Below the pieces are notes generated by a model. The model ran no database searches, was not told where the DNA came from, and was given only the letters and a program-made list of their open reading frames with translations. Shown in pieces: positions 3,370 through 39,102 of a stretch of 52,514 nucleotides of DNA. The stretch's first letter is position 1. Each line of letters opens with the position of its first letter. The stretch spans positions 1 to 52,514 of IMG/VR virus record IMGVR_UViG_3300045988_014767; one strand, given 5' to 3'. The stretch comes from a virus. The position numbers and the translations under genes were made by a program.

Positions 3370-3388
3370 GTTCCTTTCGGGTTAATTG

Positions 3389-23174: not shown

Positions 23175-23185
23175 ATCCTATGATT

Positions 23186-23692: not shown

Positions 23693-23702
23693 ATCATTGT
23701 TT

Positions 23703-26700
23703 TTATGCCAATCCTTGTGAACGCAAAGCATCACTTGATTGGTTGGTTTCCAAAATCGTAATAATCCGCTCGATGCGTGCCAAATACTTGTTGTAAGATG
23801 TGTTTGCAACAATGGTATTCAAGGCTTGCAAAGACTGTCGCAATATCTGCGTTGATTCAAGTTGGTTGATACGGATGGCATTCATTTGCCCGGCAAGGAT
23901 GTTGGCGGTTTCCTCGCTCACACCCTTAACCGCACCCGTTAATGAATCATCGGTATCATCAAGCCCCAAATCCGCAAACAAATCTTTGTAGATGTCCAAG
24001 GCTTGATTGAAATTGCTTGTTGCTGCCGCCACTTGTTGCCGGAATCGGGCAATCTCTGCATCGGATAATCCATCAAAAATGAAATCATCGCCATTCCAAT
24101 AGCCCATATCCTTTTCCAATTGGTCAAGCGCACTTTGCAATTGCTGTTCCAAGAACTTCTTTTTCAATTGGTTCACGACAAGGTTTTGCAACACTTCATT
24201 CACGGTGGTTTCCATCGCTTTTGCGGCATCTTCGCCACTCTTGAATGCTTCAACCAATGAATCACCCAATTGGCTTGCAAAATCCTTTGCGTTTGTCTGC
24301 AACAAATCATTGGATATTTCATCAATCATATCTTCAATTTGCCGCCCAAGTTCCGCATATTGCTCCATGAACTCATCCACACGCCCCCAATCGGTGTGCT
24401 TCTTGGAAATTTCGGCTTCCCATGATGCTTTAAGGTGGGCTTGCTGCTCCTGCATATTGCGGATGGCTGCTTGTTGGTTCTTGTACACCTCGCCACCCAA
24501 AGCCTTGTCAATCTGCCATTCAAGTTGCTTGTATGAGTTTTGTAACTTTGTAATGGCTTCTTGATGCTTCTTGATTTGCTTCTCTGCCTTGCGGTCGCGT
24601 GAATTGAACAAGTCAAAAGCGGATGAAAGCAACCCGATTGAACCTTGGATGATTGAAAGGGGGTTGCCCGTTGCAATGCCTTGTGAAAGTTGGCTTGCAC
24701 CCTCCATGATGCCGCCAATGTCATTCATAATGGCTTGGGTTTCCTCATCCATTTGGATGCCCATCTTTTCCAACCCGGATGTTACCGAATTGAAAACACC
24801 ATTCACAAAGTCAATTGAACCGCCAACGGATGAAAATGTATCTTTCAAGGATTGTTTCAACAAATCACTTGATGATTTGCCACTCTCCGTTTTGCGTATC
24901 ATGGCATCCAAGATGTCCATTGAGTTGCCGACATCAACGCCCATGTCAATCTTTCCTTGCAATTCCTGCTTCTTGCGTTTCAGATATTCAAGGTATGTGC
25001 CGCCTTGTTGTGCAAGTTCGGAAAAGGCTTGATTTGCCCCATCTGCAAGCGTGGAATTGCCCGAATTTACCCATGCTTGGAATTGCTTATATTCTTCCTC
25101 CTTGGCTTGCAGTTCACGCAAGAATGGGTCATCGCCCGAAAGCAACTTGTTATCCCTCATCTGCTGCCGCAAACGCTCGTATGCCGCACCAAGGGCGGTG
25201 AATGGGTTGCGTGATTCGATTTCCTTGCGTGCCTTTTCCAACTGTTCGTTGATGGCTTGCAAATCCTTGGGGTTCATTTGTGCCGAAAGGTTGATTTTTT
25301 GGCTTTCTATTTGCCCCATAAGGCGTTTGATGGTGTCGGTTGTCAATCCATCAAGGTTTGAGAAAAGCAATTGCCAATCTGCCGATTTGGTTATCAAATC
25401 GCTTTGCAACCGGGATAATTCTTCTTGTTCCGCCTGTGCAAGCTGTGCAAGCAATAATTGGTCATTGTTCAAAAGGGCAATACGCCGCCTTTCGGCATAT
25501 TGTTCCATGATACGTTGTTTCTTCTGCTCATAACCGCCATATTGGTTCAACATATCATCATAACCGCCGACACCCTTATCATCCTTTTCATATTGCGCAC
25601 GGCGATTGGCAATGGCTTGGTCAATCTCCGCACGCTCGGCATCCGTTGTGGCTTGCATACGCTTGCGGTTAAGCAATTCCACATCCGCATTGAATTGTTC
25701 TTCAAGGCGGCGTTTCTGTGCCACGAATGATGCGTATTGGTTCAATAGGGCTTCCGTTTGTTGGCGTACCTTGTTTTGGGCTTGCTGCTCCGCTTCATCA
25801 AGCACATCTTTTTTGGCGTTGTCAAGTTCCGTGCCATCGCCCGAAAGTTCCTTGCGCTTCTGCTCGATAATGTTCAGCATTTCAATAACCGATTTGGCGT
25901 TGTCAAGGCTTGCCGATAACTCTTGATTGAATGCTTCAAGTACCGTTCTTTTGGTTTCCTCGGCTATCGCATCATTGAGTTGCCGCAATTGCTTGTTCTG
26001 TTCCTTGGTACGGTTGGCAATGTCCACTTGCAAGATGATGTCACGTTGCTTTTTCAGGTAATCAATGTATGTTGCCCCCTCTTTAAGCAACTTTTCAAAC
26101 TCTTTGTTGGCGGATGCAACCAAGATGGCATCACCCGAATTGACCCACTTTTGAAAACGGGCATACTCAGATTTGTACTTTGCCAATTTTTCCAAGAATG
26201 GGTCTTTGGTGGATGTGCTGCCACCTCCACCGCTTCCACCGTTCTTATTTTTATTCCCGGTTATTTTATCAGCTTGTTTCTGCAAATCTTCAATTTCTTT
26301 CATAGCCTTTTGATAATCGGCATTATTAGTCAATTTTTTCAAGGCTTCTTGCTTTAATTGAATGGCTTGTTGTATCGCACCAAGTGACCCCTTGGCATAC
26401 GTTTCGGTTGCATCAATCCCGGCATCTTTCAATTTTTTCAAACCTGCTTTCTCTGCGGCTGCTGCATTCGTGTACCCTTGTGTAATTTCGGCTTTCAGCT
26501 CATCTAATTCTTTTTTCTTTTCCTTTTTAGCCGTGTTTTCACCCTCAACATAATACCCAGTTCCAAAGGATGATGTTTGGACATAATAGCTGCGTGTGTC
26601 AGGCATCGCATTATACTCTTGCTCTGCTTTTATATACTCTTTTATCTTTTCTTGTGCTTGGGCAAGATATATGGATGCTTTTGCCTTTTCTATTTGGGCA

Positions 26701-28358
26701 TCAATAAAGGCTTGCTTATTCTTTACAAGCAAATTTTGGGCATCTAAAACATCCTTGATTGATACACCCAATGAATCAAATGCCTTGGCATTATCTTCAA
26801 TGAATTGTTTTTTTGCTTCCAAATCATCACCAAGTGCATTCCACTTAACGGATAATTCTTCAATGGTTGCAATAGGCTTATATGCGTTTTCTGCAATGGA
26901 TTTATACCATTCCTCTGCTGCTTTCTTGGATTCGTTTGCCTTGCCTATGAAATGCGACACAAGGGCAATCAAAGCCGAAATGCCCGCAAGAATCCAACCG
27001 AACACCGGGATAGATTTTATTGCCGCCCCAACCATACGGAATGCCCCGGCAAGCCCGATATTTGCCGCCGTTCCAGCAACTGCGGATGCCGTTTGCACTC
27101 CTTGGGCTGCCGCCGCCCCGGATGTTGCGGTTGCATTGCCCGTTTTTGCCGCCGTGTTTGCTTGAACCGCCGCCGTGTTTGTGGTGGTTGCGGATGTTTG
27201 GGCAATGGTTGCCGTGGTGTCTGCGGTCTTTGCAACGGTTTCGGCAACTTGTTCACCTCGCCCGATGACTGTAAGTTTGTTCCACCATTCCTTTAACCCA
27301 TTGATGGTTGCAAGACGAAAGGCGGAATCCTTGTTCAATGCTTGTGATACCTGTTGCAATCCCATTGTGATTGACATAAGGGATTGGACTTTCAACATTA
27401 TCTTTTGCAAGTTTTCATTTTCTCCGGCAAATAATGCAACCGCGCCTTGTGCTGCCGTGAATCCACCCACAACACCATTCAAGCCGGAAATGATGCCTTG
27501 GAATTGTGCTTCATCATTGGAAAGGATTTTGCCTTGGGTTTGAATATCCCCTTGGATGTCCTGCAATCTTCCCAATTCTGCCGCCATTTCACGGTATTTG
27601 GCGGTTTGGTCGCCATATTGTTCGCGGTACAATGCCATTTCCTCACGCAATTCACGGATGCGCCCACGCAAGGAAACATGGGCTTGGGCGTTGTTTTCAA
27701 CCGCCGCCCTTGATTGCTCCAACTTGCTTGCCTCCGCTTCCAGTGCATTGGATTGGTTGCGTAACTCCGCCAACAATGATTTGCGTGTTGCCATCTCGCC
27801 TTTGATGGCTTGTGCCTTGTTCCTCAATGCCCGGTATTCTGCATCATTACCAGACTTCAACGCACCATTCATCTGCGTTGTTATCTTTTCATATTCTGCT
27901 TCAAGGGCGGCAAGGGCGTTTTCATTCATTTCACACGCTGCCCCTACCTGCGAAAGCGTTGCCCGGATTTCCTCGGCGGATGATGCCGCCCCGGCATTGG
28001 CACGCTGCAAGTTGTTCAATTCGGTAATCAAGGCAACCATGCCTTGTTTTTCATCTTCAAGTTCAGCCCTTGCCGCATTTGCTTGCTCGATAAGGGCATC
28101 TTGTGCCGCTCCCGGTTGCAACTCGTTAATCTTTGCGTTCAACTCGGCAACGGTATTTTCAAGGTTTTGGATAACCTGTTTTTGTATGTTGATTGATTCA
28201 ACGATTTCTTGTGTTGTCTTGTCCATCACATCACCACTGCCGACAACGGCATTGGAAAAGCCTTGAACCCTCCGCAATGTTTCTTCAATTGCTGCGTTCA
28301 TTTGGTCGTTATCCAAAACGGATGAAAAGGACAATGCACCACCGTTTACATCTGCCAT
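23703..28358 (-). CDS. Tape measure protein (1551 aa)
   Basis: Very long helical/coiled-coil protein with a central hydrophobic segment, located downstream of the frameshifted chaperones. Confidence 0.85.
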   Translation of the reverse strand: MADVNGGALSFSSVLDNDQMNAAIEETLRRVQGFSNAVVGSGDVMDKTTQEIVESINIQKQVIQNLENTVAELNAKINELQPGAAQDALIEQANAARAELEDEKQGMVALITELNNLQRANAGAASSAEEIRATLSQVGAACEMNENALAALEAEYEKITTQMNGALKSGNDAEYRALRNKAQAIKGEMATRKSLLAELRNQSNALEAEASKLEQSRAAVENNAQAHVSLRGRIRELREEMALYREQYGDQTAKYREMAAELGRLQDIQGDIQTQGKILSNDEAQFQGIISGLNGVVGGFTAAQGAVALFAGENENLQKIMLKVQSLMSITMGLQQVSQALNKDSAFRLATINGLKEWWNKLTVIGRGEQVAETVAKTADTTATIAQTSATTTNTAAVQANTAAKTGNATATSGAAAAQGVQTASAVAGTAANIGLAGAFRMVGAAIKSIPVFGWILAGISALIALVSHFIGKANESKKAAEEWYKSIAENAYKPIATIEELSVKWNALGDDLEAKKQFIEDNAKAFDSLGVSIKDVLDAQNLLVKNKQAFIDAQIEKAKASIYLAQAQEKIKEYIKAEQEYNAMPDTRSYYVQTSSFGTGYYVEGENTAKKEKKKELDELKAEITQGYTNAAAAEKAGLKKLKDAGIDATETYAKGSLGAIQQAIQLKQEALKKLTNNADYQKAMKEIEDLQKQADKITGNKNKNGGSGGGGSTSTKDPFLEKLAKYKSEYARFQKWVNSGDAILVASANKEFEKLLKEGATYIDYLKKQRDIILQVDIANRTKEQNKQLRQLNDAIAEETKRTVLEAFNQELSASLDNAKSVIEMLNIIEQKRKELSGDGTELDNAKKDVLDEAEQQAQNKVRQQTEALLNQYASFVAQKRRLEEQFNADVELLNRKRMQATTDAERAEIDQAIANRRAQYEKDDKGVGGYDDMLNQYGGYEQKKQRIMEQYAERRRIALLNNDQLLLAQLAQAEQEELSRLQSDLITKSADWQLLFSNLDGLTTDTIKRLMGQIESQKINLSAQMNPKDLQAINEQLEKARKEIESRNPFTALGAAYERLRQQMRDNKLLSGDDPFLRELQAKEEEYKQFQAWVNSGNSTLADGANQAFSELAQQGGTYLEYLKRKKQELQGKIDMGVDVGNSMDILDAMIRKTESGKSSSDLLKQSLKDTFSSVGGSIDFVNGVFNSVTSGLEKMGIQMDEETQAIMNDIGGIMEGASQLSQGIATGNPLSIIQGSIGLLSSAFDLFNSRDRKAEKQIKKHQEAITKLQNSYKQLEWQIDKALGGEVYKNQQAAIRNMQEQQAHLKASWEAEISKKHTDWGRVDEFMEQYAELGRQIEDMIDEISNDLLQTNAKDFASQLGDSLVEAFKSGEDAAKAMETTVNEVLQNLVVNQLKKKFLEQQLQSALDQLEKDMGYWNGDDFIFDGLSDAEIARFRQQVAAATSNFNQALDIYKDLFADLGLDDTDDSLTGAVKGVSEETANILAGQMNAIRINQLESTQILRQSLQALNTIVANTSYNKYLARIERIITILETNQSSDALRSQGLA

Positions 28359-28364
28359 ATATAC

Positions 28365-28664
28365 CTACATTAAAGAATTAACATAATTCAAAACTTGTTG
28401 TTGGTTATCCTCCGTCAATTCGATTTCACGCACGTTGTCATCTTCGGTGTCATAACTTGGTGCATCAATCATCATGCGTTGGACAATTGACCATGCAATG
28501 CCATGTAGCAAGTAATCATACGACCATCCGAAATGCTCACAGATTGCACCCCGCCGACCGTGTGGACTATTCAACCCACGTTGCTTTGCTCTATCGGATT
28601 CGGCATTGTGGTTCTGTCTGTGGACATCAATCTGATAGAGTTCAAAAAATCCCCAAGGTTGCAC
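28365..28664 (-). CDS. -1 frame extension of the tail assembly chaperone (T-like part of the G/GT pair)
   Basis: Overlaps the 3' end of 28571..29155 in the -1 frame. The slippery heptamer lies in the overlap. Confidence 0.6.
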   Translation of the reverse strand: MQPWGFFELYQIDVHRQNHNAESDRAKQRGLNSPHGRRGAICEHFGWSYDYLLHGIAWSIVQRMMIDAPSYDTEDDNVREIELTEDNQQQVLNYVNSLM

Positions 28665-29155
28665 ATGGTATTGATAAGCACATACAATTGATAAAGCCTT
28701 GATGGTTTGATGGTACGCAAGAAAAGGCGTGTCAATTGCTCCAATTTGGCTTCATCCTCAACCCATCGTGTGCCACCCTTTCCGGGAATGGCAATCAACC
28801 TATCTTCGCCAAGCACGGCGATGGCAACTACCTTTGCGCAACGCTCACAATGCTTGTGGGCATAATGTCTTGCCGCAACCATGCCATCACTTGATTTCAA
28901 TGCTTCTTCATCAATGGCAAATTCTATCCATTCGGATGAAAGGCGGTCAAGGGTTGCAAGGGTTGGTTCATTGATGGTGAACCTCCTTGTTACTTCTTTG
29001 GGGGTATGTTTCTTGAAAAATCCCCAACGCTTCACGGTTTCAAACTCAACATCCTTGACCTCAAAAGACACGCCCTTACCAATCAAGGTGTTCAACTCTT
29101 GCCGTTCCTGCTCCAATTTTTCTTGTTCCTTGCTCATATTATTGTGATTAAACAT
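28571..29155 (-). CDS. Tail assembly chaperone (G-like)
   Basis: Located between the major tail protein and the TMP. Start trimmed to MFNHNN. Confidence 0.6.
   Translation of the reverse strand: MFNHNNMSKEQEKLEQERQELNTLIGKGVSFEVKDVEFETVKRWGFFKKHTPKEVTRRFTINEPTLATLDRLSSEWIEFAIDEEALKSSDGMVAARHYAHKHCERCAKVVAIAVLGEDRLIAIPGKGGTRWVEDEAKLEQLTRLFLRTIKPSRLYQLYVLINTMCNLGDFLNSIRLMSTDRTTMPNPIEQSNVG
28643..28649 (-). promoter_or_regulatory. Slippery heptamer T_TTT_TTG (programmed -1 frameshift site)
   Basis: Zero frame reads GGG GAT TTT TTG AAC; the -1 frame reads GGA TTT TTT GAA and stays open to 28365. Confidence 0.6.
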
Positions 29156-29158
29156 TGA

Positions 29159-29187
29159 AGCCCCCAAGGGCTGTTGCTCCGGGGGCT
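29159..29187 (-). terminator. Stem-loop between the major tail gene and the chaperone gene
   Basis: agccccc...gggggct 7-bp GC stem. No clear U-tract. Confidence 0.35.
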
Positions 29188-29216
29188 TCGGGTTTCACTT
29201 TCAGGTTGCCCCGCTT

Positions 29217-29729
29217 TTAAGTTGTCGCGGGTTTCGCTCTCATCGCCTTTCCCGATGATACCGCACAAGGGGTAACGGTGAAATCGACAAGGAAAATACC
29301 CTTTGCCGACATATCGGCGTTGATGATGGCTTCGATGTCGCCATTGGGGATTTCAAAGTTCAAGCCCTGTTCGGCTTTCACCAAGATAGCCTTGTTTGCA
29401 ACGACTTCATCACCATCAAAACCCCAAACGGGGGCATCGGATGTACCCACGTTTTCGCCACCGACATAATCAATCAAATCTTGCACGTTGGCATCCATGA
29501 TTGAGAATGTAAGTTTCGGCATCTTCTTGGATTTCTTGCGCACTTCGGGGGCTGCCTTGCCCTCCTCGTAATGCTCCGTCACATCGGCGGCATCCTGCGC
29601 AATCTTGCAAGTATCTTTGTAGGTCTTGCCGATTTTGGCAAGCGAGCCGGGCATCACACCAGTTGTTGATGCTGCACCAACTTGGATTTCACACAGACCA
29701 AGCGTGATTAAAGATGTTCTTTCTGCCAT
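29217..29729 (-). CDS. Major tail protein
   Basis: Position upstream of the chaperones and size (~170 aa). Start trimmed to MAERT after the upstream stop. Confidence 0.55.
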   Translation of the reverse strand: MAERTSLITLGLCEIQVGAASTTGVMPGSLAKIGKTYKDTCKIAQDAADVTEHYEEGKAAPEVRKKSKKMPKLTFSIMDANVQDLIDYVGGENVGTSDAPVWGFDGDEVVANKAILVKAEQGLNFEIPNGDIEAIINADMSAKGIFLVDFTVTPCAVSSGKAMRAKPATT

Positions 29730-29736
29730 GATGAAA

Positions 29737-30138
29737 TTAAATTTGAATGTTCCAATCAATGCGGATGTTCACGAAATGTTGCCGTGTGTTTGGCTCATAC
29801 ATGATTGTCATGTTGCCGGGTATGGCTTTAATTCCGTGGATTTCCGCTTTTCTCACTATTGCCAAGACTTCTTTTGCCAAGGCTTTCAATCTCGTGCGGT
29901 TTGCTGACAACACCGATTTGCCCTTGATTTTCTTGGGGGTGTCCGGGGTATAGATGTTGATGTTGCTTGTACCTATTTGCGGCAAGCCGTCTTGCGTCAA
30001 ATCAACGGTATTCACGGCAATATCTTCATCCTGCGAATTGTCCGGGCGGTCACCATCATGGTAACAAGCACCCTTGATGGATGTGTTGCCATTGAGCAAG
30101 CCAAACAAGATTTCGTTGGTATCAAATGATGTAATCAT
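29737..30138 (-). CDS. Tail terminator / neck protein candidate
   Basis: Synteny only (between the gp10-like protein and the major tail protein). Confidence 0.4.
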   Translation of the reverse strand: MITSFDTNEILFGLLNGNTSIKGACYHDGDRPDNSQDEDIAVNTVDLTQDGLPQIGTSNINIYTPDTPKKIKGKSVLSANRTRLKALAKEVLAIVRKAEIHGIKAIPGNMTIMYEPNTRQHFVNIRIDWNIQI

Positions 30139-30602
30139 TCGGCTGCACGTTTAATGTTAGTAATAAGTTTCTCCAACATCCGGGGCAATTCCCGTTGGGC
30201 AAGATGTTCCGCGCTTGATAGCACATTATATCCTCTCGCTTCAACGTATGCGGCATAATTCATTCCGGCAACCACAACAAGGGCAACACCCTTGGTTTGT
30301 TTTCCCACCTTATCGGCAATGGTTTGCCCGGCTTTCATTCCTTTTGCGGCTGCACCGCTTTCCGCTCCGCTCGCCGCATCGAATTGGGTATGAACGGCAA
30401 CGCCATCCACAAAGATTTGATAACCCGTGGACGATAGCAACGCCCCGGTTTGCATCATATACCCTTTGTTGTTTCTTGCTTCAATCAAGCACATTTCGCC
30501 CAGCCTTTGCAAGCTGGCAATCTGCTTTTTTTCAATCTCATTCAAGAAAGCATCAAAGCGGTTGCGCACATCATCCTTTGTGAAATTCGCCTTTATACCC
30601 AT
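30135..30602 (-). CDS. HK97 gp10-like neck/tail component
   Basis: Synteny and an N-terminal pattern resembling the HK97 gp10 family. Confidence 0.45.
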   Translation of the reverse strand: MGIKANFTKDDVRNRFDAFLNEIEKKQIASLQRLGEMCLIEARNNKGYMMQTGALLSSTGYQIFVDGVAVHTQFDAASGAESGAAAKGMKAGQTIADKVGKQTKGVALVVVAGMNYAAYVEARGYNVLSSAEHLAQRELPRMLEKLITNIKRAAE

Positions 30603-30928
30603 AACCGTGAATGTAATTGTGCTTTGTCAAAGTTCAAGCATATTCCGGCAATGCGGATGTCCGAACAATCCATATCGTTTGCAATCACTACCATTGCACC
30701 TTTGGCAACCATTGGGCAAGTTGTGGGCAACTGAATAACGGATGTCGCTTTTTGGGTTTTCCCTCCTGCAACTTGGTATTCCGTACCCTTGCCATCGGAT
30801 TCCTCACGGCACATGGAAATGAACTTGCGCGATGATTCGCATTCAACCCAATTGCCCCCGGCATCCTGCACGGATTCGGCGGCTTCCTCAATGAAAAGGA
30901 AATGGGGGTATTGCTTTACTGCTGCCAT
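30593..30928 (-). CDS. Head closure / head-tail adaptor candidate
   Basis: Synteny. Start trimmed to MAAVKQ next to the upstream stop. Confidence 0.4.
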   Translation of the reverse strand: MAAVKQYPHFLFIEEAAESVQDAGGNWVECESSRKFISMCREESDGKGTEYQVAGGKTQKATSVIQLPTTCPMVAKGAMVVIANDMDCSDIRIAGICLNFDKAQLHSRLWV

Positions 30929-30929
30929 A

Positions 30930-31244
30930 TCACCATATATTTGAGCGGTTGCGAATTTTCGGACGTGTGGCAAGCACATTATCTTTGCCAAGTTCGTGAC
31001 ACAAGGCATTGTAATACATCTTAACGGCATCCATGTTCCAAGAAACGGAATATCCACCCTCCGACACGTTTTGCATAGTGCCTTTGAGGATGACCGAAAA
31101 GCGGTCATAAACCGCCGTATCACATTGCTTGCAATCAACTTCGGCATCGGCTTGAACTCCACCTTTTATCATGATGATTTCAATATCATCATCGGAAAGG
31201 TTAAGCCCGTTCAATGCCTTGGTAAGATATTCTTTGTTCGTCAT
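30930..31244 (-). CDS. gp6-like head-tail connector candidate
   Basis: N-terminal LTKALNGLNLSDDDIEIIM pattern and its position after the capsid gene. Confidence 0.45.
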   Translation of the reverse strand: MTNKEYLTKALNGLNLSDDDIEIIMIKGGVQADAEVDCKQCDTAVYDRFSVILKGTMQNVSEGGYSVSWNMDAVKMYYNALCHELGKDNVLATRPKIRNRSNIW

Positions 31245-31268
31245 AATCCATCTTGCTTTCAGAACTCC

Positions 31269-31303
31269 GGGGCGGTGTCCTACGCTTTAACCGCCACCGC
31301 CCC
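31269..31303. terminator. 9-bp GC stem-loop just downstream of the major capsid gene
   Basis: ggggcggtg...caccgcccc. The T-run is on the plus side only. Confidence 0.35.
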
Positions 31304-31314
31304 TTTGTTCAATG

Positions 31315-32421
31315 TTAGTTCTTGTTCCACGATGTCGCATTAACCTGCATCAAAACGCTTCTTCCGGCAAGATTCCACGCGGGGAAAAGGTTTGCAATTC
31401 CCTCGGTAACCTCCTGTACCGGGCTTTCGTTGGAATACTTCTTGACAAGGGTGTGTCCGTGCATAACCTTTTCGGCTACGCTGCCGGGCATTGCCTTTGC
31501 GTCAATCGGCTTTTTCCAATACGTGTTGCCAAGTACCTTGCTTTCGCTGAAAAGGATAACATCATCCTCAAACGGATTTTCAGTGATGCGTGTGCCATCG
31601 GCAAGTTCCAATGTGATGTCTTGGTCAATCACAATGATTTGCAAGCCACGGAACAATTCCTTTTTCTTGGCAAGGTAAGCATTCACGGTTGCAAGGTCGG
31701 GGGCATCCTGTGTGTCGGTTACGTTCTGAATGAATGTGGCACACTTCTTATAAACTTCCTCTTGGGCGGCAAGTTTCTCAAAAGTATCAACATTCATAAA
31801 CGCAAACTTGTAGGTTGCGCCATACAACTTCTTGCCCAGCTTCAGGGCGGCGGGGAAATCCTTTGTGAAAGGCTTTCCGGCTGTTCCTGCCGTGTAATCG
31901 GTTGTTACGCCGATTTTCTGCTCTGCCGGGATAAGGTAATCAACATCGTATTCGGTTACGACTGCTGCATTGTTGGAATTGGTGAACTTCACCTTGCCAA
32001 GTGAAATTTGCTTCAACGCAATCCACTCGGCACGTGCTGCAACGCCATCCCAACAAAATTTGGTGTCCTCTGCCCAAAACTCCACAAGGGCTTTGAGGTC
32101 GGGATTATTGCTCGACATGGCAACCATGATGTCATATTCGGTCAATTCATCCTCGTTTTTCTCTCGCGATATGGTAATCTTGGGGATGTCACCTTGGATG
32201 CGTGAAATCGCTTCACGGGTCTTTCTCGGAATTGTCGCACCCCTTGCCACAAGGTCGGCGGCAATCTTCAAGCCGGATTGCGCTTCAAGCATCTTCCACG
32301 TGAGGAAATTGGTTTCCTTCAACGGGAAAAGGGTTGGATAATAATAGTCTTTGAGGTCGTAAGTGCGAATTACGGCTTCCATGTCCTTTTCATTCAACCC
32401 TACCATCAAACTCTTTTGCAT
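31315..32421 (-). CDS. Major capsid protein (lambda gpE-like family)
   Basis: 368 aa following scaffold and decoration genes. N-terminal YYPTLFPLKETNFLTWKMLEAQSGLKIAADLVARGATIP resembles Phage_cap_E. Confidence 0.7.
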   Translation of the reverse strand: MQKSLMVGLNEKDMEAVIRTYDLKDYYYPTLFPLKETNFLTWKMLEAQSGLKIAADLVARGATIPRKTREAISRIQGDIPKITISREKNEDELTEYDIMVAMSSNNPDLKALVEFWAEDTKFCWDGVAARAEWIALKQISLGKVKFTNSNNAAVVTEYDVDYLIPAEQKIGVTTDYTAGTAGKPFTKDFPAALKLGKKLYGATYKFAFMNVDTFEKLAAQEEVYKKCATFIQNVTDTQDAPDLATVNAYLAKKKELFRGLQIIVIDQDITLELADGTRITENPFEDDVILFSESKVLGNTYWKKPIDAKAMPGSVAEKVMHGHTLVKKYSNESPVQEVTEGIANLFPAWNLAGRSVLMQVNATSWNKN

Positions 32422-32443
32422 ATTCGCTTAATTGTTTTAGGGG

Positions 32444-33010
32444 TTAAACATAAACCACACCTTTAAGGGCGGTTTTGATAGCATCATTCACGATGGGGGC
32501 GGTTGCCTTGTTCACTACACCGATAACCCATGCACTGACAAACAAGTTGGTGTCGCTCTTGACATCTTCGTTGCTCCCGGCAATGGCAACCGGGGTAACT
32601 TTCAATGTCTTGTTCGCTCCACTTGATTCAAATGCACAAGTTCCGGCGGCAATCTTGGATGCCGAAAGGGTTGTGCCTACGGTGATGATGTCCTTTGCGG
32701 GGTCGGACTTGTCAATCGCGGTGATGGTCTGACCGTTGCAATCTGCTGTTGCGAAACGGTCACCAACCTTGAAATGATGCCCCTTGGCAACTTCGTATGA
32801 TGTTGCACTTGCTGCCGCTTCGGTAACGATTTGGGCGGTCTTGCAAACCGCATACAAGCCATTTGCATCAACACCAATTGGCGTTCCCTCAAACAATGCC
32901 GTGCCGCCCAGATTGGCAACCTTAACGGTAACGCCACCGGGGATGTCTGCAACGCGATGCAAGATGCACTTGACAACGCGGTTGTCTTTCTTTCGTTCAA
33001 TCTGCAACAT
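32444..33010 (-). CDS. Head decoration / head fibre candidate
   Basis: Synteny between scaffold and capsid. Ala/Gly/Thr-rich beta-type sequence. Confidence 0.35.
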   Translation of the reverse strand: MLQIERKKDNRVVKCILHRVADIPGGVTVKVANLGGTALFEGTPIGVDANGLYAVCKTAQIVTEAAASATSYEVAKGHHFKVGDRFATADCNGQTITAIDKSDPAKDIITVGTTLSASKIAAGTCAFESSGANKTLKVTPVAIAGSNEDVKSDTNLFVSAWVIGVVNKATAPIVNDAIKTALKGVVYV

Positions 33011-33028
33011 TGTTGTTGGTTTTTACGG

Positions 33029-33718
33029 TTAAACTTCTTTGCCCTTGAATGTATCATTTTCGGGCTTCTGCGATGCCACGAAATCGGCAACACCCTTGGA
33101 AATACCATCTTCACCTTTTTGGGCGAAAAGGGGCTTTCCACTTGCACCGCCAAGGGCGGCATTCGCCACATTCTGATTTGCGGTTGCGATGTCCGTTTCC
33201 TTGTCTTTCAGGTATTCCGCAAACTCATCATCGGTTTCAAACTTCATGCGGGCGAAATCTTTCAAGGTTTGTGCCTTGAATGTTTCATCCTTGCATCCGT
33301 TCAACTTCTCATTGAGTTGGGCAAGCCTTGTATCGGCAAGGTTCTTGGTTTCGTAACCTGACAACTTTTCTTCAAAGGGCTTGACTGCTGCCGCAACTGC
33401 CGCTTTGACAATCTCCGCAAGGTTTTCCGGGTTCTTGTTCGGGTCACCGCCGGGTTCGGTTTCCTTTTCCTTGAAATCGTACTTCTTGCGCAAATTGGTT
33501 TCAAAGGTCTTGTTACTCTCGGACACCTCTTTGTCCACATCCTTGCGATAATCCTTGATAAACTCGTTCACTTGCGCATCGGTGAGTTTGTCCACAAGGG
33601 TTTTCGCTTCTTCTTCGGTTGCTGCTTGTAGGGCAAGGATGCCCGCCATAACTGACAATCCGTCTTTCCGCACGCCTTGGAACTTCGCCACAAGTAATGC
33701 CAAAATTGTTTTCTTCAT
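33029..33718 (-). CDS. Scaffolding protein candidate
   Basis: Helical, charged 229-aa protein upstream of the capsid gene. Confidence 0.5.
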   Translation of the reverse strand: MKKTILALLVAKFQGVRKDGLSVMAGILALQAATEEEAKTLVDKLTDAQVNEFIKDYRKDVDKEVSESNKTFETNLRKKYDFKEKETEPGGDPNKNPENLAEIVKAAVAAAVKPFEEKLSGYETKNLADTRLAQLNEKLNGCKDETFKAQTLKDFARMKFETDDEFAEYLKDKETDIATANQNVANAALGGASGKPLFAQKGEDGISKGVADFVASQKPENDTFKGKEV

Positions 33719-33782: not shown

Positions 33783-33856
33783 TTAATAAAAGGCGGTTAG
33801 TTATGCTTAACTTATCAACAATTTTGCAATGCAAGTGCATTTTTTCGCCAAAAAAG

Positions 33857-33887
33857 TTTGTTGTATTAAATAAAACAACTATCTTTG
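33857..33887 (+). promoter_or_regulatory. Plus-strand promoter (TTTG -33 at 33857..33860, TATCTTTG -7 at 33880..33887) for the accessory island
   Basis: Both consensus boxes are present, with a 19-nt gap between them. Confidence 0.55.
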
Positions 33888-33889
33888 CG

Positions 33890-33906
33890 GTGTGTTACTA
33901 TAAAAC
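33890..33906 (+). promoter_or_regulatory. Recurrent 17-mer GTGTGTTACTATAAAAC, copy 5 (plus-sense)
   Basis: Immediately after the -7 box and 40 nt upstream of the ATG at 33947. Inverted relative to copy 3 in the same intergenic region. Confidence 0.5.
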
Positions 33907-33946
33907 ACAATGCAACATAAGTATAACAATAAAAACTTTCGCAATA

Positions 33947-34177
33947 ATGGCAACAACAATTGAGGATTTGAAAAATCAAATCATGGAAAGGGCAAAAGCC
34001 CAAATCACAACCGCCGAACATGATTATCAAAAGGGCATCGAGGATTGCAAAATGGGTGTGTATGATAAATGGTTTCGTTACCACCGCAAGGATGATGGCA
34101 ATGCCTATGATAAAGGTTGGGTGTTCCAAAACCAAACAATACAATGTGAAACGGTTTCTTTCCTGCCGGGCTTATAA
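33947..34177 (+). CDS. Hypothetical protein (76 aa)
   Basis: First ATG after the promoter (MATTIEDLKNQ...). Confidence 0.5.
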   Translation: MATTIEDLKNQIMERAKAQITTAEHDYQKGIEDCKMGVYDKWFRYHRKDDGNAYDKGWVFQNQTIQCETVSFLPGL

Positions 34178-34207
34178 TTCAAGTTTAACAAATAATCTTT
34201 CGCAACA

Positions 34208-34474
34208 ATGAAACAATGTATCAAAGAACAAATTGAAAAGTTGGATTATGAAACCCAACTTCGTGTGAATGAAACAATCCAAGCCCTTGACAATGGCAAG
34301 GCAAGTTCCATTGAATTTTATTCCGATGGTTCGGGGGTTTCCTTTGAATACCATCACCCAACAATCAACCACGGATGCCCCGGCACGTTGGCATCATCAT
34401 TCCGGACGGAACAAGCCTTGATAATACTTGCCGGACATCGCTTGTGTTCACATAAACTTCCCAAATGCTTTTGA
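34208..34474 (+). CDS. Hypothetical protein (88 aa)
   Basis: Co-oriented ORF. Confidence 0.45.
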   Translation: MKQCIKEQIEKLDYETQLRVNETIQALDNGKASSIEFYSDGSGVSFEYHHPTINHGCPGTLASSFRTEQALIILAGHRLCSHKLPKCF

Positions 34475-34478
34475 TGAT

Positions 34479-34847
34479 ATGGTTGGAAAATCAAGTTTAT
34501 ACACGCCGCGTTGCAAGGACTTCAACGCGGCATTCAAAGGTTTGGCGAACGTTACCACGCACGCAACCGAAACAAACCATTACGATGGCACATTTACCGA
34601 TTTTGACGGGTCGGTTTACATCAATCACCGCGAATGGGTATCAATCGCCGAAACCGATGGCAAGTTCATGGTTTATATCAACAATCCCGGTTGCCCTGTG
34701 GATGCCGATGGATGCTCGGTGTTCACCAAGGAACACCCGCAACAACAATGGGTGTTCGGGTATTACGAATCATTCAAACGGGCATTGAACCGCGCAATGG
34801 CAATTGTTCGCGGTTACACATACCCCGCACCCATTGAAATATGGTGA
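34479..34847 (+). CDS. Hypothetical protein (122 aa)
   Basis: ATG (MVGKSSLY) 5 nt after the upstream stop. The listed TTG start at 34428 is less likely. Confidence 0.45.
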   Translation: MVGKSSLYTPRCKDFNAAFKGLANVTTHATETNHYDGTFTDFDGSVYINHREWVSIAETDGKFMVYINNPGCPVDADGCSVFTKEHPQQQWVFGYYESFKRALNRAMAIVRGYTYPAPIEIW

Positions 34848-34875
34848 TTATTCACTTTGTATTAAATAAATTAGT

Positions 34876-34883
34876 TACCTTTG
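34876..34883 (+). promoter_or_regulatory. -7 box TACCTTTG ending 2 nt before the ATG at 34885 (possible leaderless transcript)
   Basis: Consensus match in the 37-nt gap. Confidence 0.35.
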
Positions 34884-34884
34884 T

Positions 34885-35457
34885 ATGATGACAAAACAAG
34901 ATTTTGAAGCCCTTGCAAGCAAATATGGCTTGGATGTGGATTTCGTGCATCAGTTGCACGAAAAGGTTGTGGACAAGGAAAACTTCGCCCGTGCGGTGAG
35001 GATGTTTGTAAATGGCACGTTGCCATACGATGTTGCAATGGGGGATGCTCCCATCAACATTGCGGAACTTCGCCATCAGGTCGCCCAAAATCTGCTTGTG
35101 TTCCGCAAGCACAAAGCCGAAAAGGTAAGGCAAGCAATGGAACAACAACGCAAGATTGTGGATTATTACAACGGATGCCAACGGCTTGTGATGCACCATC
35201 GGGGCAAAAAGCAAATCCGGGAAATGGTTGCAATCAAGGATGGCATCATTGTGGCTTTCGGGCATTATGAACCCAACCAAGGGGGAATATATGCCGCTAA
35301 CAATCCCGTGATGCCGGATTTCCATTGGCAACCACATGATGCGTTGGCAAGACTTCGCAAGCTGGATAAGGCTTTTTATCGCAAGGTGAAAAAGGCTGCT
35401 TCCAATTCGCCCAAAGAATGGTTTGATTTTACAATAACAACAATAGCAAAACAATGA
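34885..35457 (+). CDS. Hypothetical protein (190 aa)
   Basis: Co-oriented ORF. Confidence 0.5.
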   Translation: MMTKQDFEALASKYGLDVDFVHQLHEKVVDKENFARAVRMFVNGTLPYDVAMGDAPINIAELRHQVAQNLLVFRKHKAEKVRQAMEQQRKIVDYYNGCQRLVMHHRGKKQIREMVAIKDGIIVAFGHYEPNQGGIYAANNPVMPDFHWQPHDALARLRKLDKAFYRKVKKAASNSPKEWFDFTITTIAKQ

Positions 35458-35687
35458 ATGGAACGACAATATACCACGTTTCCTTTGGCGATGATGACAA
35501 CCATTATTTCGGTTCAATAGCCGCCATCTTTGACCACTTCACACCATCCCAACTTGGTGTGTCTGCTTCCCGGTTGTGGAATTATGGTATCACGGAATCC
35601 AAGCCATACCGCAACGAAAAGGTTATCATCCGCCGTGGGGTGATACATCGCAAGAAAACGAATCGCAAGAACCCAAACACCAAATGA
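35454..35687 (+). CDS. Small basic protein (77 aa), possible DNA binder next to the iteron array
   Basis: Overlapping ATGA junction and basic C-terminus RRGVIHRKKTNRKNPNTK. Confidence 0.45.
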   Translation: MNGTTIYHVSFGDDDNHYFGSIAAIFDHFTPSQLGVSASRLWNYGITESKPYRNEKVIIRRGVIHRKKTNRKNPNTK

Positions 35688-35710
35688 AATGCACATGTAA
35701 TACAAGTGCA

Positions 35711-35848
35711 ATGCAAATGCATCGTTTCTTTATGCAATTGTATACCACTTCAATGCAAATGCATTCCAAATGAAGTGCAAATGTAACGCAAATGCATTTA
35801 GGACATTTCACATCATTGCAAATGCATCAAAATTCAATGCAAATGCAT
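35711..35848 (+). repeat. Iteron-like array: five GCAAATGCAT copies plus degenerate copies
   Basis: Copies start at 35713, 35755, 35788, 35818 and 35839, giving spacings of 42, 33, 30 and 21 nt. Confidence 0.7.
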
Positions 35849-35857
35849 CAGTTGTTT

Positions 35858-35872
35858 ATGCAATTGCATTGC
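35858..35872. promoter_or_regulatory. 15-mer ATGCAATTGCATTGC (contains the 12-bp perfect palindrome ATGCAATTGCAT), copy 1
   Basis: Exact copies also at 43949 and 45152. Confidence 0.6.
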
Positions 35873-35885
35873 TTTTGCATGACAT

Positions 35886-35939
35886 AAAGGAAATAATATA
35901 TATATACTCTATATATTTCATTTCATTACATATATAGAG
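35886..35939. other. AT-rich tract with a 10-bp perfect inverted repeat (ctctatatat / atatatagag)
   Basis: Arms at 35907..35916 and 35930..35939. Immediately follows the iterons. Confidence 0.6.
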
Positions 35940-36012
35940 AGAGGGGTAAAAACCCCTTTCGCCCCAAAAATCGGGATAAATTTCAAAGATTTGGCATTTT
36001 TCCCCCGAATTA

Positions 36013-36044
36013 TTTGCACGGTTCGTGGATTTGTTGTACTTTTG
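36013..36044 (+). promoter_or_regulatory. Promoter of the antirepressor transcript (TTTG 36013..36016, TACTTTTG 36037..36044)
   Basis: Both consensus boxes are present, with a 20-nt gap between them. Confidence 0.55.
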
Positions 36045-36048
36045 CGGT

Positions 36049-36244
36049 GCTATACATCATATCAAAGGCGGAACGCAAGAACCGCAAACAATCCGTTGGC
36101 GGTATTTTTATACCCTGACGGCAAACATATCGGCATTGTACCCCCGTGTTGAGCGTTAATGCGCCAACTGCCTTTGATGGTGTATAGCAACGGGAAAGGC
36201 AATGCCGTTTTTCTATTGCCTGAAACTTTCATAAATGCTATACA
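36049..36244 (+). ncRNA. Structured ~195-nt 5' leader of the antirepressor gene (candidate cis-regulatory RNA)
   Basis: 19-bp long-range helix 36049..36069 / 36170..36188. The 9-mer TGCTATACA occurs at 36048 and 36236, and its complement TGTATAGCA at 36181. Confidence 0.45.
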
Positions 36245-37141
36245 ATGAAAGATTCGATTAAAATTTTTGAGAATGCCCAATTCGGGCAAATCCGTACATC
36301 AGTAACGGAAAGTGGAGAACCTTTGTTTTGTCTTGCAGACTTATGTCGTGCATTAGACTTGCAACAAGTTTCAAAGGTTAGACCAAGGCTTAATCAAAAG
36401 GGGGTGCATACTATTCCCCTCCTTACAAATGGTGGAACACAACAAGCGTATTTCATCACCGAACCCAACTTGTACAAGTGCATCTTCCAAAGCCGCAAGA
36501 AAGAAGCGGAACAATTTCAAGATTGGGTGTGCGGCGAGGTACTGCCAAGCATCCGCAAGTCGGGTGGTTACATGGTTGCAAGGGTTGATGAAACGCCGGA
36601 ACAAATCATGGCGCGTGCGTTGATAGTCGCGCAAGAAACCATCAACCGCCAAAAAGCCGCCGTTGCCGCCGCTGAAAAGCGTGCCACGCTGCTTGAAGCC
36701 ACGACCAAGCAAATGACCGTGCAAATAAACGGTTTGGAAAGCCAAAACAAGGAATTGTTGCCCGGCGCAACGTTCGCCAAGGCGGTGGAAACATCCGAAC
36801 ATTCCATTTTAATCGGCGAGTTGGCACGCATCATCAAGCAAAACGGCGTTGAAATCGGGCAAAACCGCCTGTTCCAATGGTTGCGTGAAAATGGATTCCT
36901 TTGCAAAAAGGGCGAATGGTACAACCAACCCACGCAAAGGGCGATGGAAATGGGGTTGTTTGAAATCAAAAAGACGGTCATCACCAAACCATCGGGCGAT
37001 TCCCTTGTAACGACAACCACCAAAGTAACCGGGAAAGGGCAAATCTACTTCGTGAACCGATTCCTTTATGAAAAATCCAAGCGCAACGATGACAAGCCGC
37101 AAATGGGTAACGAATCAAGCAGGAAAGGGGGTGCGCAATGA
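36245..37141 (+). CDS. ant: Antirepressor (Bro-N domain plus KilAC/ANT C-terminal domain)
   Basis: IFENAQFGQIRT...EPLFCLADLCRALDL...FITEPNLYKCIFQSRKKEAEQFQDWV (Bro-N) and RLFQWLRENGFLCKKGEWYNQPTQRAMEMGLFEIK (KilAC). Confidence 0.8.
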   Translation: MKDSIKIFENAQFGQIRTSVTESGEPLFCLADLCRALDLQQVSKVRPRLNQKGVHTIPLLTNGGTQQAYFITEPNLYKCIFQSRKKEAEQFQDWVCGEVLPSIRKSGGYMVARVDETPEQIMARALIVAQETINRQKAAVAAAEKRATLLEATTKQMTVQINGLESQNKELLPGATFAKAVETSEHSILIGELARIIKQNGVEIGQNRLFQWLRENGFLCKKGEWYNQPTQRAMEMGLFEIKKTVITKPSGDSLVTTTTKVTGKGQIYFVNRFLYEKSKRNDDKPQMGNESSRKGGAQ

Positions 37142-37374
37142 AAAAGTATGTTTTGAGCGAACAAACGACACGTCTTTTGAATTGCGTGGAAAAGATGCAA
37201 AGCCTGTATTCGGATGTGTACGAATCATTGCTTGCCATATATTCAAGTGATGATGTTGATGAAATGATTGCAAACAAATTCATCGTTGAGTTTGACGCAT
37301 TGGAAAAGCGCATTGAAGCGTTTGTAATGCAGTCTATCAAGGAAAATATCAACATAACCAATAACGAAATATAA
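37138..37374 (+). CDS. Hypothetical protein (78 aa)
   Basis: ATGA-coupled to ant. Confidence 0.5.
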   Translation: MKKYVLSEQTTRLLNCVEKMQSLYSDVYESLLAIYSSDDVDEMIANKFIVEFDALEKRIEAFVMQSIKENINITNNEI

Positions 37375-37427: not shown

Positions 37428-37577
37428 AAAAGAATACCTTATGATGATTAGGCTTGGGATTGCAGTTCCCTTGACCCTAATTTGATAAAGGCATTCATTC
37501 GCAGAAATATAAGTGCAACTGAATCAGTTGGCGGGATTGCAGTTTCTCGGATTGATTTGGTTGTGCTTATTTTTTTG
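37428..37577 (+). ncRNA. Candidate small RNA / short transcript from the orphan promoter
   Basis: Contains the GGGATTGCAGTT direct repeat (37456, 37533), a CAACTG-AAT-CAGTTG hairpin, a terminal T7 run, and only a 14-codon ORF. Confidence 0.3.
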
Positions 37578-39102
37578 CCATCACTGCGAGTTTGTCGCTG
37601 TCTGTAATACTATGCAGACAAACAGTTCCGTCTTCAAATTCACGAACAATAATCCATGACTTTTCGCCATTTATTTTTATTTCAAATAAATGCGCCTTTG
37701 CATTTGGATTGTGTTTGTCTTTAACCCATCCTACATACTTAGATTGTTTAAGGGTTTTATTGATGTCAAGAATCAATTCGTTTTTCTCTAACATGAATTT
37801 ATGCGGTTGATTCAACCATTCCTTCACTGCACCCTTGGATATTTGTATGGATGTATTGAACATAGAAAGCGATATTGTAGTTGTTGCAATGTTTTGTGCT
37901 TGCTGTTTAATCTCCTTCCGTCTTTTCCGCATGGTTTCAAGCCTTGCCGCCACATCTGCCATAAGGCTTGATTGGATTTCATGTGTTGTCGGCATTGCAA
38001 TCTTCAACCCCTTACCAAGTTGCCCATCAACGAAATTGTCCTTGATGAAATACGGCGTGGATGCCCAACCCTTTTGCGCTTCCGTGTGGTCTTTGACCCA
38101 TGCTTTGAACCCGTCCGGCACATCGGCAACGGCGTTCTTTGCCTGTTGGTGCTTGTATGTCGTGCCGCGCAATGCCGCTTTGAGGTCGCCCAACTCATTT
38201 TCATCAAAGGTTTCTTCATCCATCAATATAGGGGTTGCGTAACACATACATTGAGGATGCCACCCCTTGAACTTGAAAGTTTTTGGGTATCTGCCAACCA
38301 ACTTTTCGCAAATGTCGCATTCGCACAACGGTTCGTGGTTGCTTCGGTGAATTTCAAAGCCAACCACAAAATCCAATGATTGCCAACGCTGCCAATCACT
38401 TTCACGATAAGCCATATTGATTTCCGACCGGGTAAGGCGCATTGCATTCTTGTAACTTGACCTATAAACGCCACGCCCCGGATGGAAAGCCCTTGCAGCC
38501 TTTGACAACACAAGGTTTCCACGTTTATCACGGACACGGCGGAAAAGGCGGTTGGGGTCAAGCAAGTTTTGCCGCACATCCCTTGAAAGTTCATCCGCGC
38601 TTCGCCCCTCTCCCAAACCTACATCAAGGGCGGATTCCAATTGCTCACGGTATTGCCCAACGTATTTCCAAATCCTTTGTGATAAATCCATGCCATCCAC
38701 CTTTCGCCCTTGGAACGCTGCCAAGGCATCCAAGTTTTGGTCTTGCATTTTCTTCAACTGCCCCTTGGACAACTTGGATGTGTCCATGATGGATGCCAAA
38801 AAGCCATCATTCTTTTGGCACGCAAACAACCATTGCTTGCGTGAACCTGTTTCAATGACGGTTTGCATATTGGATGCAAGTTGTTCCGTTATCCTCTGCA
38901 TTTCCTTTTGCACGGATGGGTACATATCAAACGAAAAGGGCTTGTCGGGGTCTATCTTGCCACGTGCTGCCGCCCTTGACACCGCCGTTGTTGCCTTGTC
39001 ATACAAGGCTTGCACGGCTTGGGCATACGCTTCGGTTGTGCGGTAATGTGCCAAATCGTATGATTGGATTGAAAATCTTGTTGTCTTTTGCCGCTTTGCC
39101 AT
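37567..39102 (-). CDS. Head morphogenesis protein (Mu F / SPP1 gp7 family) with ~150-aa C-terminal extension
   Basis: ...NAMRLTRSEINMAYRESDWQRW...HRSNHEPLCECDICEKLVGRYPKTFKFKGWHPQCMCY. Located after the portal gene. Confidence 0.75.
   Translation of the reverse strand: MAKRQKTTRFSIQSYDLAHYRTTEAYAQAVQALYDKATTAVSRAAARGKIDPDKPFSFDMYPSVQKEMQRITEQLASNMQTVIETGSRKQWLFACQKNDGFLASIMDTSKLSKGQLKKMQDQNLDALAAFQGRKVDGMDLSQRIWKYVGQYREQLESALDVGLGEGRSADELSRDVRQNLLDPNRLFRRVRDKRGNLVLSKAARAFHPGRGVYRSSYKNAMRLTRSEINMAYRESDWQRWQSLDFVVGFEIHRSNHEPLCECDICEKLVGRYPKTFKFKGWHPQCMCYATPILMDEETFDENELGDLKAALRGTTYKHQQAKNAVADVPDGFKAWVKDHTEAQKGWASTPYFIKDNFVDGQLGKGLKIAMPTTHEIQSSLMADVAARLETMRKRRKEIKQQAQNIATTTISLSMFNTSIQISKGAVKEWLNQPHKFMLEKNELILDINKTLKQSKYVGWVKDKHNPNAKAHLFEIKINGEKSWIIVREFEDGTVCLHSITDSDKLAVMAKK

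Follow-up and report, generated by a model that had tools for sequence, protein, structure and literature searches.

In the viral record IMGVR_UViG_3300045988_014767 (IMG/VR; positions 1 to 52,514, this whole stretch of 52,514 bases being referred to here as the window), the antirepressor gene ant is preceded by a leader in which two short elements, X' and Y', can each pair with either an upstream or a downstream partner. We propose that this leader is a structured, promoter-proximal RNA that extends from approximately 36048 to the ant AUG at 36245 and that it works as a self-contained two-state device, exposing or burying the start codon and probably also terminating transcription. Judging from the sequence comparisons presented below, we put the probability of this reading as a whole at about 60%. 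The leader also belongs to a large structured-RNA family of Bacteroidota phages and prophages that is apparently both undescribed and uncatalogued.

Two coupled three-way elements in the ant leader

The predicted 5' end of the leader carries a variable 9-mer, TGCTATACA (X1, 36048 to 36056; this and all other features of the leader are on the + strand), which forms the outer 5' strand of a long closing helix, P1. The same 9-mer occurs again at 36236 to 36244 (X3), where it abuts the ant ATG at 36245, and its complement, TGTATAGCA (X', the putative switching element, 36181 to 36189), lies between them in the 3' strand of P1. This arrangement had been pointed out in the original prediction, and X1, X', and X3 are indeed the only exact occurrences of the 9-mer on either strand of the window; no further copies of X or X' that might serve as targets in trans were found elsewhere in the window beyond chance expectation. 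The three-way arrangement is not fortuitous, because it recurs in homologues with different sequences. Among 154 analysable instances of the element there were 69 different X' 9-mers, and X' paired with its own X1 at all nine positions in 89 instances (58%), compared to 1.4% after X' was swapped between instances. Likewise, complete 9/9 pairing of X' with its own downstream X3 was observed in 82 of the 154 instances (53%) versus 2.1% after swapping, and X3 mostly ended 0 to 4 nucleotides (nt) before an ATG. In an alignment of 70 sequences, X1 and X' were paired in 96% of the cells, and all 9 pairs had changed on both sides. Moreover, at 54 of the 97 positions where X1 differed from X3, both were still able to pair with X' by means of G-U pairs, a pattern that RNA pairing would be expected to give and DNA sites for a protein would not. 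By these comparisons, X1, X', and X3 co-vary as a triple, and X' has two mutually exclusive predicted partners, as had been suggested for the middle element.

A second triple involves a long-range helix, T, which is a pseudoknot with respect to P1. Its 5' strand (36131 to 36147) consists of Y1 (CGGCAUUG) plus CCCCCGU, and its 3' strand (36190 to 36207) consists of ACGGGAAAGG plus Y' (CAAUGCCG, 36200 to 36207) and follows X', which ends at 36189, with no linker. Helix T was chosen by RNAalifold on the 70 sequences; all eight of its variable pairs were compensatory, and 98.4% of the cells were paired. In the window it comprises 15 base pairs (bp) with two bulges (duplex energy, -21.8 kcal/mol), and the branched loop that its stem closes measures about 40 nt and includes a hairpin. 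Own Y' and Y1 paired at 8/8 positions in 131 of 153 instances, compared to 4.4% after swapping, with 54 variants of Y' represented. Y' is also part of hairpin H2 (AGGCAAU/AUUGCCU, 36197 to 36221), in which it pairs with a downstream sequence, Y3, and whose loop holds GCCGUUUUUCU; this hairpin, with its internal U-run, was present in the fold as had been anticipated. The energy of own Y' against own downstream sequence was -9.6 kcal/mol, versus -6.5 kcal/mol when swapped (p = 6e-41). The predicted helices T and H2 are mutually exclusive, and Y1, Y', and Y3 are, on the evidence of the swaps, a triple like that of X. The 30-nt strand from 36178 to 36207 (X', ACGGGAAAGG, and Y') has two complete alternative partner sets, and when the 3' half was folded alone, X':X3 enclosing H2 was obtained in nearly all members.

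Helix T ends at 36207 and is directly followed by the U-run UUUUUCU (36208 to 36214), of which UUUUU starts at 36208 and which is also in the loop of H2. Across the family, T made up on average 7.1 of the 10 nt after Y' (background, 30% T), and 147 of 154 instances had 6 or more T there; the tail after H2 was not consistently U-rich (mean of 3.5 T in 9 nt). No simple hairpin terminator was found on the + strand of the leader in a consensus scan. Helix T and the U-run would probably also constitute an intrinsic terminator, one with a branched loop.

The closing helix P1 had been described as 12 bp starting at 36049, a 2-nt bulge, and 7 bp. The helix is present in the minimum-free-energy (MFE) fold and co-varies, with 9/9 outer pairs compensatory, but its 5' strand (36048 to 36069) starts one position earlier and its inner segment is longer by one pair: 36048 to 36059 pair with 36178 to 36189 (12 bp) and, after a UA bulge, 36062 to 36069 pair with 36170 to 36177 (8 bp), so that the 3' strand spans 36170 to 36189. 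The innermost 2 bp (36068 and 36069) compete with hairpin P2 (36068 to 36085), which has a GCGG/CCGC stem and the loop AACGCAAGAA and whose pairs vary among GC, AU, and GU (columns 34/49 and 35/48 of the 70-sequence alignment). P1 further encloses hairpin P3 (36093 to 36121), with a conserved U-rich loop (GGUAUUUUUAUACC) and columns 72 to 74 pairing with 84 to 86, and hairpin P4 (36148 to 36168), with the conserved loop UUAAUG and 6 of 7 pairs compensatory. The P4 loop UAAU(G/A) was kept also in the loci identified through the Ant protein, where its presence had played no part in the selection. Finally, hairpin H3 (CUUUCAU/AUGAAAG, 36226 to 36251) is predicted by folding; its 3' arm contains the AUG and its loop X3, and an H3-like arrangement (UUUCAUUUU/AAAAUGAAA) was seen in a second subgroup with other downstream genes.

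For the structure composed of outer P1, P2, P3, P4, and helix T, 96.4% of 2482 cells in the 70-sequence alignment were in standard pairs, and 28 of 36 pairs had changed on both sides. The covariation score was 0.534, compared to 0.196 in shuffled alignments, none of which (0 of 500) reached the observed value, and pairing fell to 32 to 44% when the partners were slid by 1 to 3 columns. RNAalifold independently found T, P2, P3, and P4 on the 70 sequences and P1 on a closer set. Because G-U pairs are frequent on the + strand, this must be the transcribed strand. The 215-nt leader (36046 to 36260) had an MFE of -72.9 kcal/mol versus -51.3 +/- 4.3 kcal/mol for 200 dinucleotide shuffles (z = -5.07), none of which folded as well, and this MFE fold holds P1 (12 + 8 bp), the internal hairpins, H2, and H3. 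Folding and comparison with homologues, which were among the checks proposed with the original prediction, came out in its favor, and the covariation lends support to the cis-acting RNA control that it had considered plausible.

The promoter that had been read immediately upstream is likewise borne out by the homologues. It is of the Bacteroidetes type (36013 to 36044), with a -33 element TTTG at 36013 to 36016 and, 20 nt apart, a -7 box TACTTTTG at 36037 to 36044. The -7 box consensus TAnnTTTG was exact in 103 of 133 unique homologues and had at most one mismatch in 130 of them. In 95 of the 103 homologues with an exact box, the spacing from the end of the box to X1 was 3 nt; because of this fixed spacing, and given the known -7/-33 promoter type, we infer that the RNA starts at about 36048, i.e., at X1. 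The regulated gene, ant (36245 to 37141, + strand), encodes a Bro-N and KilAC antirepressor of 298 amino acids (Pfam PF02498, 1.8e-17, and PF03374, 9.8e-29; PHROG 130, anti-repressor Ant, 1.9e-79).

Members of the family and the genes downstream

Relatives of the Ant protein in viral contigs gave 34 loci, of which 19 carried a leader 76 to 86% identical to that in the window, and a DNA search of phage records located the core in seven Porphyromonas gingivalis phages, 5' of a different gene. An initial scan of viral contigs with a 14-base core pattern was unspecific and gave mostly chance matches, which were filtered with nhmmer; a more specific pattern, used on genomes with one genome per species, matched in at least 120 species-level genomes. 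Bacteroides, Parabacteroides, Phocaeicola, Prevotella, Alistipes, Odoribacter, Butyricimonas, Tannerella, Rikenellaceae, Proteiniphilum, Flavobacterium, Chitinophagaceae, and Pinibacter were among the matches listed. When all searches of viral contigs and Bacteroidota genomes were pooled, there were at least 172 unique homologues. A covariance model built from the 70 sequences identified exactly one copy in the window (36045 to 36219; 147.7 bits) and recovered members that were not in its seed (L035, 96.5 bits; L111, 56.3 bits; L030, 46.8 bits; L031, 17.9 bits); it gave no match 5' of the more distant Ant homologues L014 to L025.

The original prediction matched the leader to no recognised RNA family. 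In agreement with this, cmscan against Rfam 15 at the gathering score gave no match in the window or in 12 homologous loci, and at E values up to 10 there was nothing meaningful over the leader. Literature searches turned up no description of such a leader family. Two published motifs were considered and rejected: the Bacteroides-2 motif (Weinberg 2010), which has no Rfam number in that paper's table and is unrelated in sequence, and HMP2_11368, the Bro-N-associated motif of Fremin & Bhatt 2021, which is a 62-nt Firmicutes motif.

Bro-N/KilAC antirepressors were the largest group of downstream open reading frames (ORFs), which also included Rha (PF09669, 1.8e-29), AntA (PF08346, 2.9e-21), and other small ORFs. 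On a Flavobacterium collinsii contig the element was 5' of an ORF for a SymE-type toxin (PF08845, 2.3e-12), and 13 other members preceded a family of membrane proteins of about 85 to 96 amino acids without a Pfam match. SymE of Escherichia coli is under antisense-RNA control. Antirepressors of three unrelated families, a toxin, and small membrane proteins all need to be kept tightly off. Because the downstream genes are so diverse, the RNA cannot recognise a common protein product, and the element is a portable promoter-plus-leader cassette that is not specific to ant. This cassette character and its spread across the phylum go beyond the original prediction, as do the Y1/Y'/Y3 triple with its terminator-like U-run and the finding that about one-quarter of the members (36 unique ones) lack X3 and still have P1, T, and H2.

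Mismatched chimeras were found in only 5 of about 154 instances, and their rarity argues for selection on matched triples. In three of them, which are leaders 5' of Bro-N genes (L211, L160, and L172), the P1 5' strand (X1 plus the inner strand) comes from another variant than X' and X3; P1 is unable to form and X':X3 is intact, and recombination inside the conserved core appears to have produced these leaders. In the other two (L087 and L170), X1 is the same as X3, yet it is 2 to 3 positions off the complement of X'. Tandem or partly duplicated copies of the element were seen within a few hundred bases of each other in L087 (435 to 602 and 904 to 1054), L170 (3161 to 3325 and upstream), and L257 (7562 to 7758).

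In the phage record PP754931.1 (Porphyromonas phage phage019b_ATCC49417; locus L035), a coding sequence annotated as a hypothetical protein (2912 to 3481) spans the whole RNA element. A coding remnant was rejected as an explanation, since the full triple is kept (X1, TGCATTCCA; X', TGGAATGCA; X3, TGCATTCCA) and X3 overlaps an in-frame ATG at 3149. The real protein is probably about 110 amino acids long, the N-terminal 79 codons being mis-annotated, and the same applies to six related phage records.

With regard to the surroundings of ant in the window, the cassette is located in a + strand island of small ORFs (33803 to 37374) that have no Pfam match, one of them matching PHROG 10608 (function unknown). 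The island is flanked by two minus-strand blocks, one of long ORFs from 17005 to 33718 and the other opening with a head-morphogenesis-like protein (37567 to 39102) and continuing with ORFs to 42276; the placement of an antirepressor between two such blocks is unusual. The stretch just 5' of the ant promoter (35681 to 35939) carries an array of about 10 copies of (A/T)TGCAAATGCAT, at spacings of 11 or 21 nt and with several copies inverted, followed by an AT-rich palindromic stretch (35879 to 35939) and then a G+C hairpin with a T-run at about 35938 to 35962. The array and AT-rich region look like the iterons of a replication origin or a multi-operator region, and weak miRNA-like Rfam matches in 35681 to 35939 reflect the palindromes only. 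A minus-strand ORF of 75 amino acids (36062 to 36289) lies beneath the leader RNA.

The proposed two-state mechanism and alternative explanations

The upstream partner set would comprise X1, which gives the 20-bp P1 closing P2 to P4, and Y1 plus CCCCCGU, which gives helix T followed by the U-run; the downstream set would comprise Y3, which gives H2, and X3 at the start codon. Initiation in Bacteroidota relies on an unstructured start region and not on a Shine-Dalgarno sequence. In the assignment of on and off that we infer, X3 would be free when X' is held by X1, the AUG would be engaged only in the weak H3, and ant would be translatable, while pairing of X' with X3 would bury the 9 nt before the AUG and block translation. 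Termination at the U-run after helix T would turn part of the transcripts into an RNA of about 165 nt. The states may be combined in either of two ways. They may divide into upstream partners (X1 and Y1) versus downstream partners (X3 and Y3), by analogy with what was proposed for c4 of phage P1, or they may be crossed, with P1 and H2 leaving X3 free in one state and the inner P1, T, and X':X3 present in the other. With pseudoknot penalties taken into account, the two crossed states would have similar energies.

Several points weigh against this two-state reading. In the window, P1 plus H2 plus H3, the nested optimum, amounted to -72.7 kcal/mol, compared to -61.5 kcal/mol with X':X3 and H2 enforced and -21.8 kcal/mol for the T duplex alone; the family means were -14.0 kcal/mol for outer P1, -10.5 for H2, -22.2 for T, and -12.6 for X':X3. 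As long as X1 is present, X':X3 is therefore at a disadvantage of about 11 kcal/mol relative to the MFE fold, and X1 is the first of the three elements to be transcribed, so X':X3 should form only when X1 is removed, occupied, or outcompeted. The sequence gives no hint of how X1 would be displaced; candidates would be 5' processing, RNase III acting on the 20-bp P1, slow refolding to the crossed state, or a trans-acting RNA. Furthermore, X' passes into T without a linker and the loop that T closes contains the 20-nt 3' strand of P1, so that by simple geometry full P1 and full T would be strained together and may not coexist. Sequestration of the start codon is not the core function of the family, because about one-quarter of the members are without X3; as these members keep P1, T, and H2, the choice between T and H2 is the core and X3 would be an added translational lock. 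Finally, the search pattern itself makes ACCCCCGTG, TAATG, and ACGGGAAAG invariant in the loci obtained from genomes; the loci found through the protein, which are free of this bias, show the same boxes with few compensated exceptions.

The RNA of about 165 nt that termination at the U-run would yield might also be stable and act in trans, as a functional analogue of the immunity RNA c4, its X' not being held by X1 owing to the steric strain between full P1 and T. X' would then block translation by pairing with X3 of read-through ant mRNA and favor termination by pairing with X1 of nascent leaders, and the variable X would be a specificity code sorting related phages into immunity types. We regard this proposal as doubtful, in each of these parts. 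The conserved U-run directly after T and the lack of a linker between X' and T are consistent with it, although the short RNA is itself a prediction from the terminator-like helix and U-run. X is hypervariable, in that the same X' was present in only about 30% of the pairs of members with 90 to 100% core identity; this would be expected of a specificity determinant, but it could also come from recombination within the conserved core, of which the chimeras are examples. As with a1b1 and a2b2 of P1, the antisense segment is flanked by identical targets, X1 and X3, and X3 is displayed in a hairpin loop. In the fold of lowest energy, however, X' is engaged with X1 in a 12-bp helix, whereas a' and b' of c4 are exposed in loops, and the window has no additional X or X' for it to act upon. 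A cargo of antirepressors and toxins would suit such a role, in which the element could tentatively be seen as an RNA-only immunity system of Bacteroidota temperate phages that gives these genes a self-reinforcing, heritable OFF state. The 9-mer X might then conceivably be the address code of heteroimmunity groups among gut phages and the whole a counterpart of P1 c4 that arose by convergence on an unrelated scaffold, a suggestion that we consider speculative.

It is unlikely, in our estimation, that the leader is a riboswitch-like sensor whose core (P2 to P4, the CCCCCGUG and ACGGGAAAG strands, and the UAAUG loop) binds a small molecule, an ion, or a host or phage protein and thereby sets T versus H2 and hence termination, read-through, and exposure of the start codon. 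The unpaired and junction nucleotides are very highly conserved beside freely co-varying stems, but this invariance is partly an ascertainment effect of the search pattern. A pseudoknotted core with two alternative 3' structures would fit a sensor, as would the extension of H2 in one subgroup to ACGGGAAAGCGGAAC/GUUCCCUUUCCCGU, often then U-rich, which is a classical terminator/antiterminator layout; family-wide, however, the tail after H2 lacks consistent U-richness, P1 is far longer, at about 20 bp, than a ligand-dependent P1 usually is, and the downstream genes have no metabolic theme in common from which a ligand might be guessed. A DNA-level explanation, in which X1, X', and X3 are operator half-sites bound by a phage-specific protein or the repeats of an invertible or mobile segment and the RNA fold is incidental, is very improbable. 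X1 overlaps the predicted transcription start, a classical position for an operator, X varies between phages as do the operators of heteroimmune phages, and the unit is bordered by X1 and X3 as direct repeats. Nevertheless, the differences between X1 and X3 are in most cases tolerated through G-U pairing, many G-U pairs occur on the + strand only, and five further co-varying helices lie within the unit; in addition, the promoter is outside the X1-to-X3 repeat and yet at a fixed spacing from X1, which is not the pattern of target-site duplications. On the G-U evidence and the fixed promoter spacing, DNA operators, an invertible segment, and target-site duplication were all rejected.

Two further candidates were rejected. 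An ORF starting at the P4-loop AUG has no fixed relation to the main ATG and no consistent length or frame across the family; it stops within 11 codons in 55 of 150 members, and its lengths are like those of control frames, which argues against a leader peptide. In the window, the P4-loop AUG opens an ORF of 29 codons (36159 to 36248) whose TGA overlaps the ant ATG (ATGA), probably by coincidence. An antisense promoter was rejected because a search of the minus strand for TAnnTTTG gave nothing downstream of the ATG and a single match elsewhere (36129), which is without a -33 box and is not conserved.

Relation to known systems and implications

The comparison with the c4 RNA of P1/P7 immI (RF01695) that accompanied the original prediction proved apt. 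As in P1/P7, the antirepressor gene would be under control at the RNA level, one transcript carries upstream targets, antisense segments, downstream targets at the translation start, and ant, in that order, and the complementarity resides in two distinct elements, called a and b in P1 and X and Y here. In heteroimmune P1/P7 phages, the complementary elements reportedly differ. The partners of a' and b' of c4 in P1 are a1b1 on the upstream side and a2b2 on the downstream side, and a1b1 is proposed to compete with a2b2, allowing expression of ant (Weinberg 2010, Additional file 1; PMC8198154). The same logic is evident here without homology, since X' is predicted to pair with X1 and X3 and Y' with Y1 and Y3 and all of these co-vary; what is new, on the sequence comparisons, is a phylum-wide leader family with two coupled three-way elements. 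Neither the sequence nor the structure is homologous to that of c4, and cmscan gave no c4 match in 35600 to 36500 at E values up to 10. The element described here is found in another phylum, Bacteroidota, with a -7/-33 promoter, and is about 165 to 200 nt long as opposed to 77 nt for c4; its antisense segments are in helices rather than in loops, its upstream pairing is a 20-bp closing helix plus a pseudoknot, it has no sign of RNase P-type processing, and it also occurs 5' of genes other than ant.

Coupled covariation is reportedly also a property of the tac, fbi, and ucb/dcb elements of hok. As in hok/sok-type mRNAs, one element of the leader has two alternative partners with all three positions co-varying, a long-range helix with the mRNA 5' end would decide whether the translation start opens, and the cargo must stay off, some members preceding a SymE toxin or small membrane proteins. 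The leader differs in that no separate antisense gene was detected, there being no conserved promoter on the opposite strand, in that the competing element is at the 5' end and not the 3' end, and in that there is no homology. With riboswitch and attenuator platforms it shares a position directly after the promoter and a folded core followed by mutually exclusive helices, one beside a U-run and one over the translation start; it differs from them in having no leader peptide, no known ligand, a P1 of about 20 bp, and, on the U-run side, a helix that closes a loop of about 40 nt with a hairpin. The sar RNA of P22 (RF00262) represses translation of ant at the start region, as is proposed for the leader, but sar comes from the opposite strand, whereas the leader has neither a conserved antisense promoter nor a match in Rfam.

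The human gut and mouth are rich in temperate phages of Bacteroides, Parabacteroides, Prevotella, Alistipes, and Porphyromonas, and to our knowledge almost nothing is known about how the induction of these phages is controlled. The proposed two-state model is directly testable through compensatory changes in the three 9-mers. The element also corrects mis-annotated ORFs that run across the RNA, and its 69 X' types are natural orthogonal variants that could serve as RNA parts for the engineering of Bacteroides. If the 9-mer were in fact to act in trans, immunity groups of gut phages would be definable from sequence alone. Together, the presence of the element in at least 120 species-level genomes and many viral contigs, 5' of antirepressor genes from three unrelated families and of several toxin-like genes, supports the conclusion that it is probably a general control cassette for the genes of the lysis-lysogeny decision in Bacteroidota.

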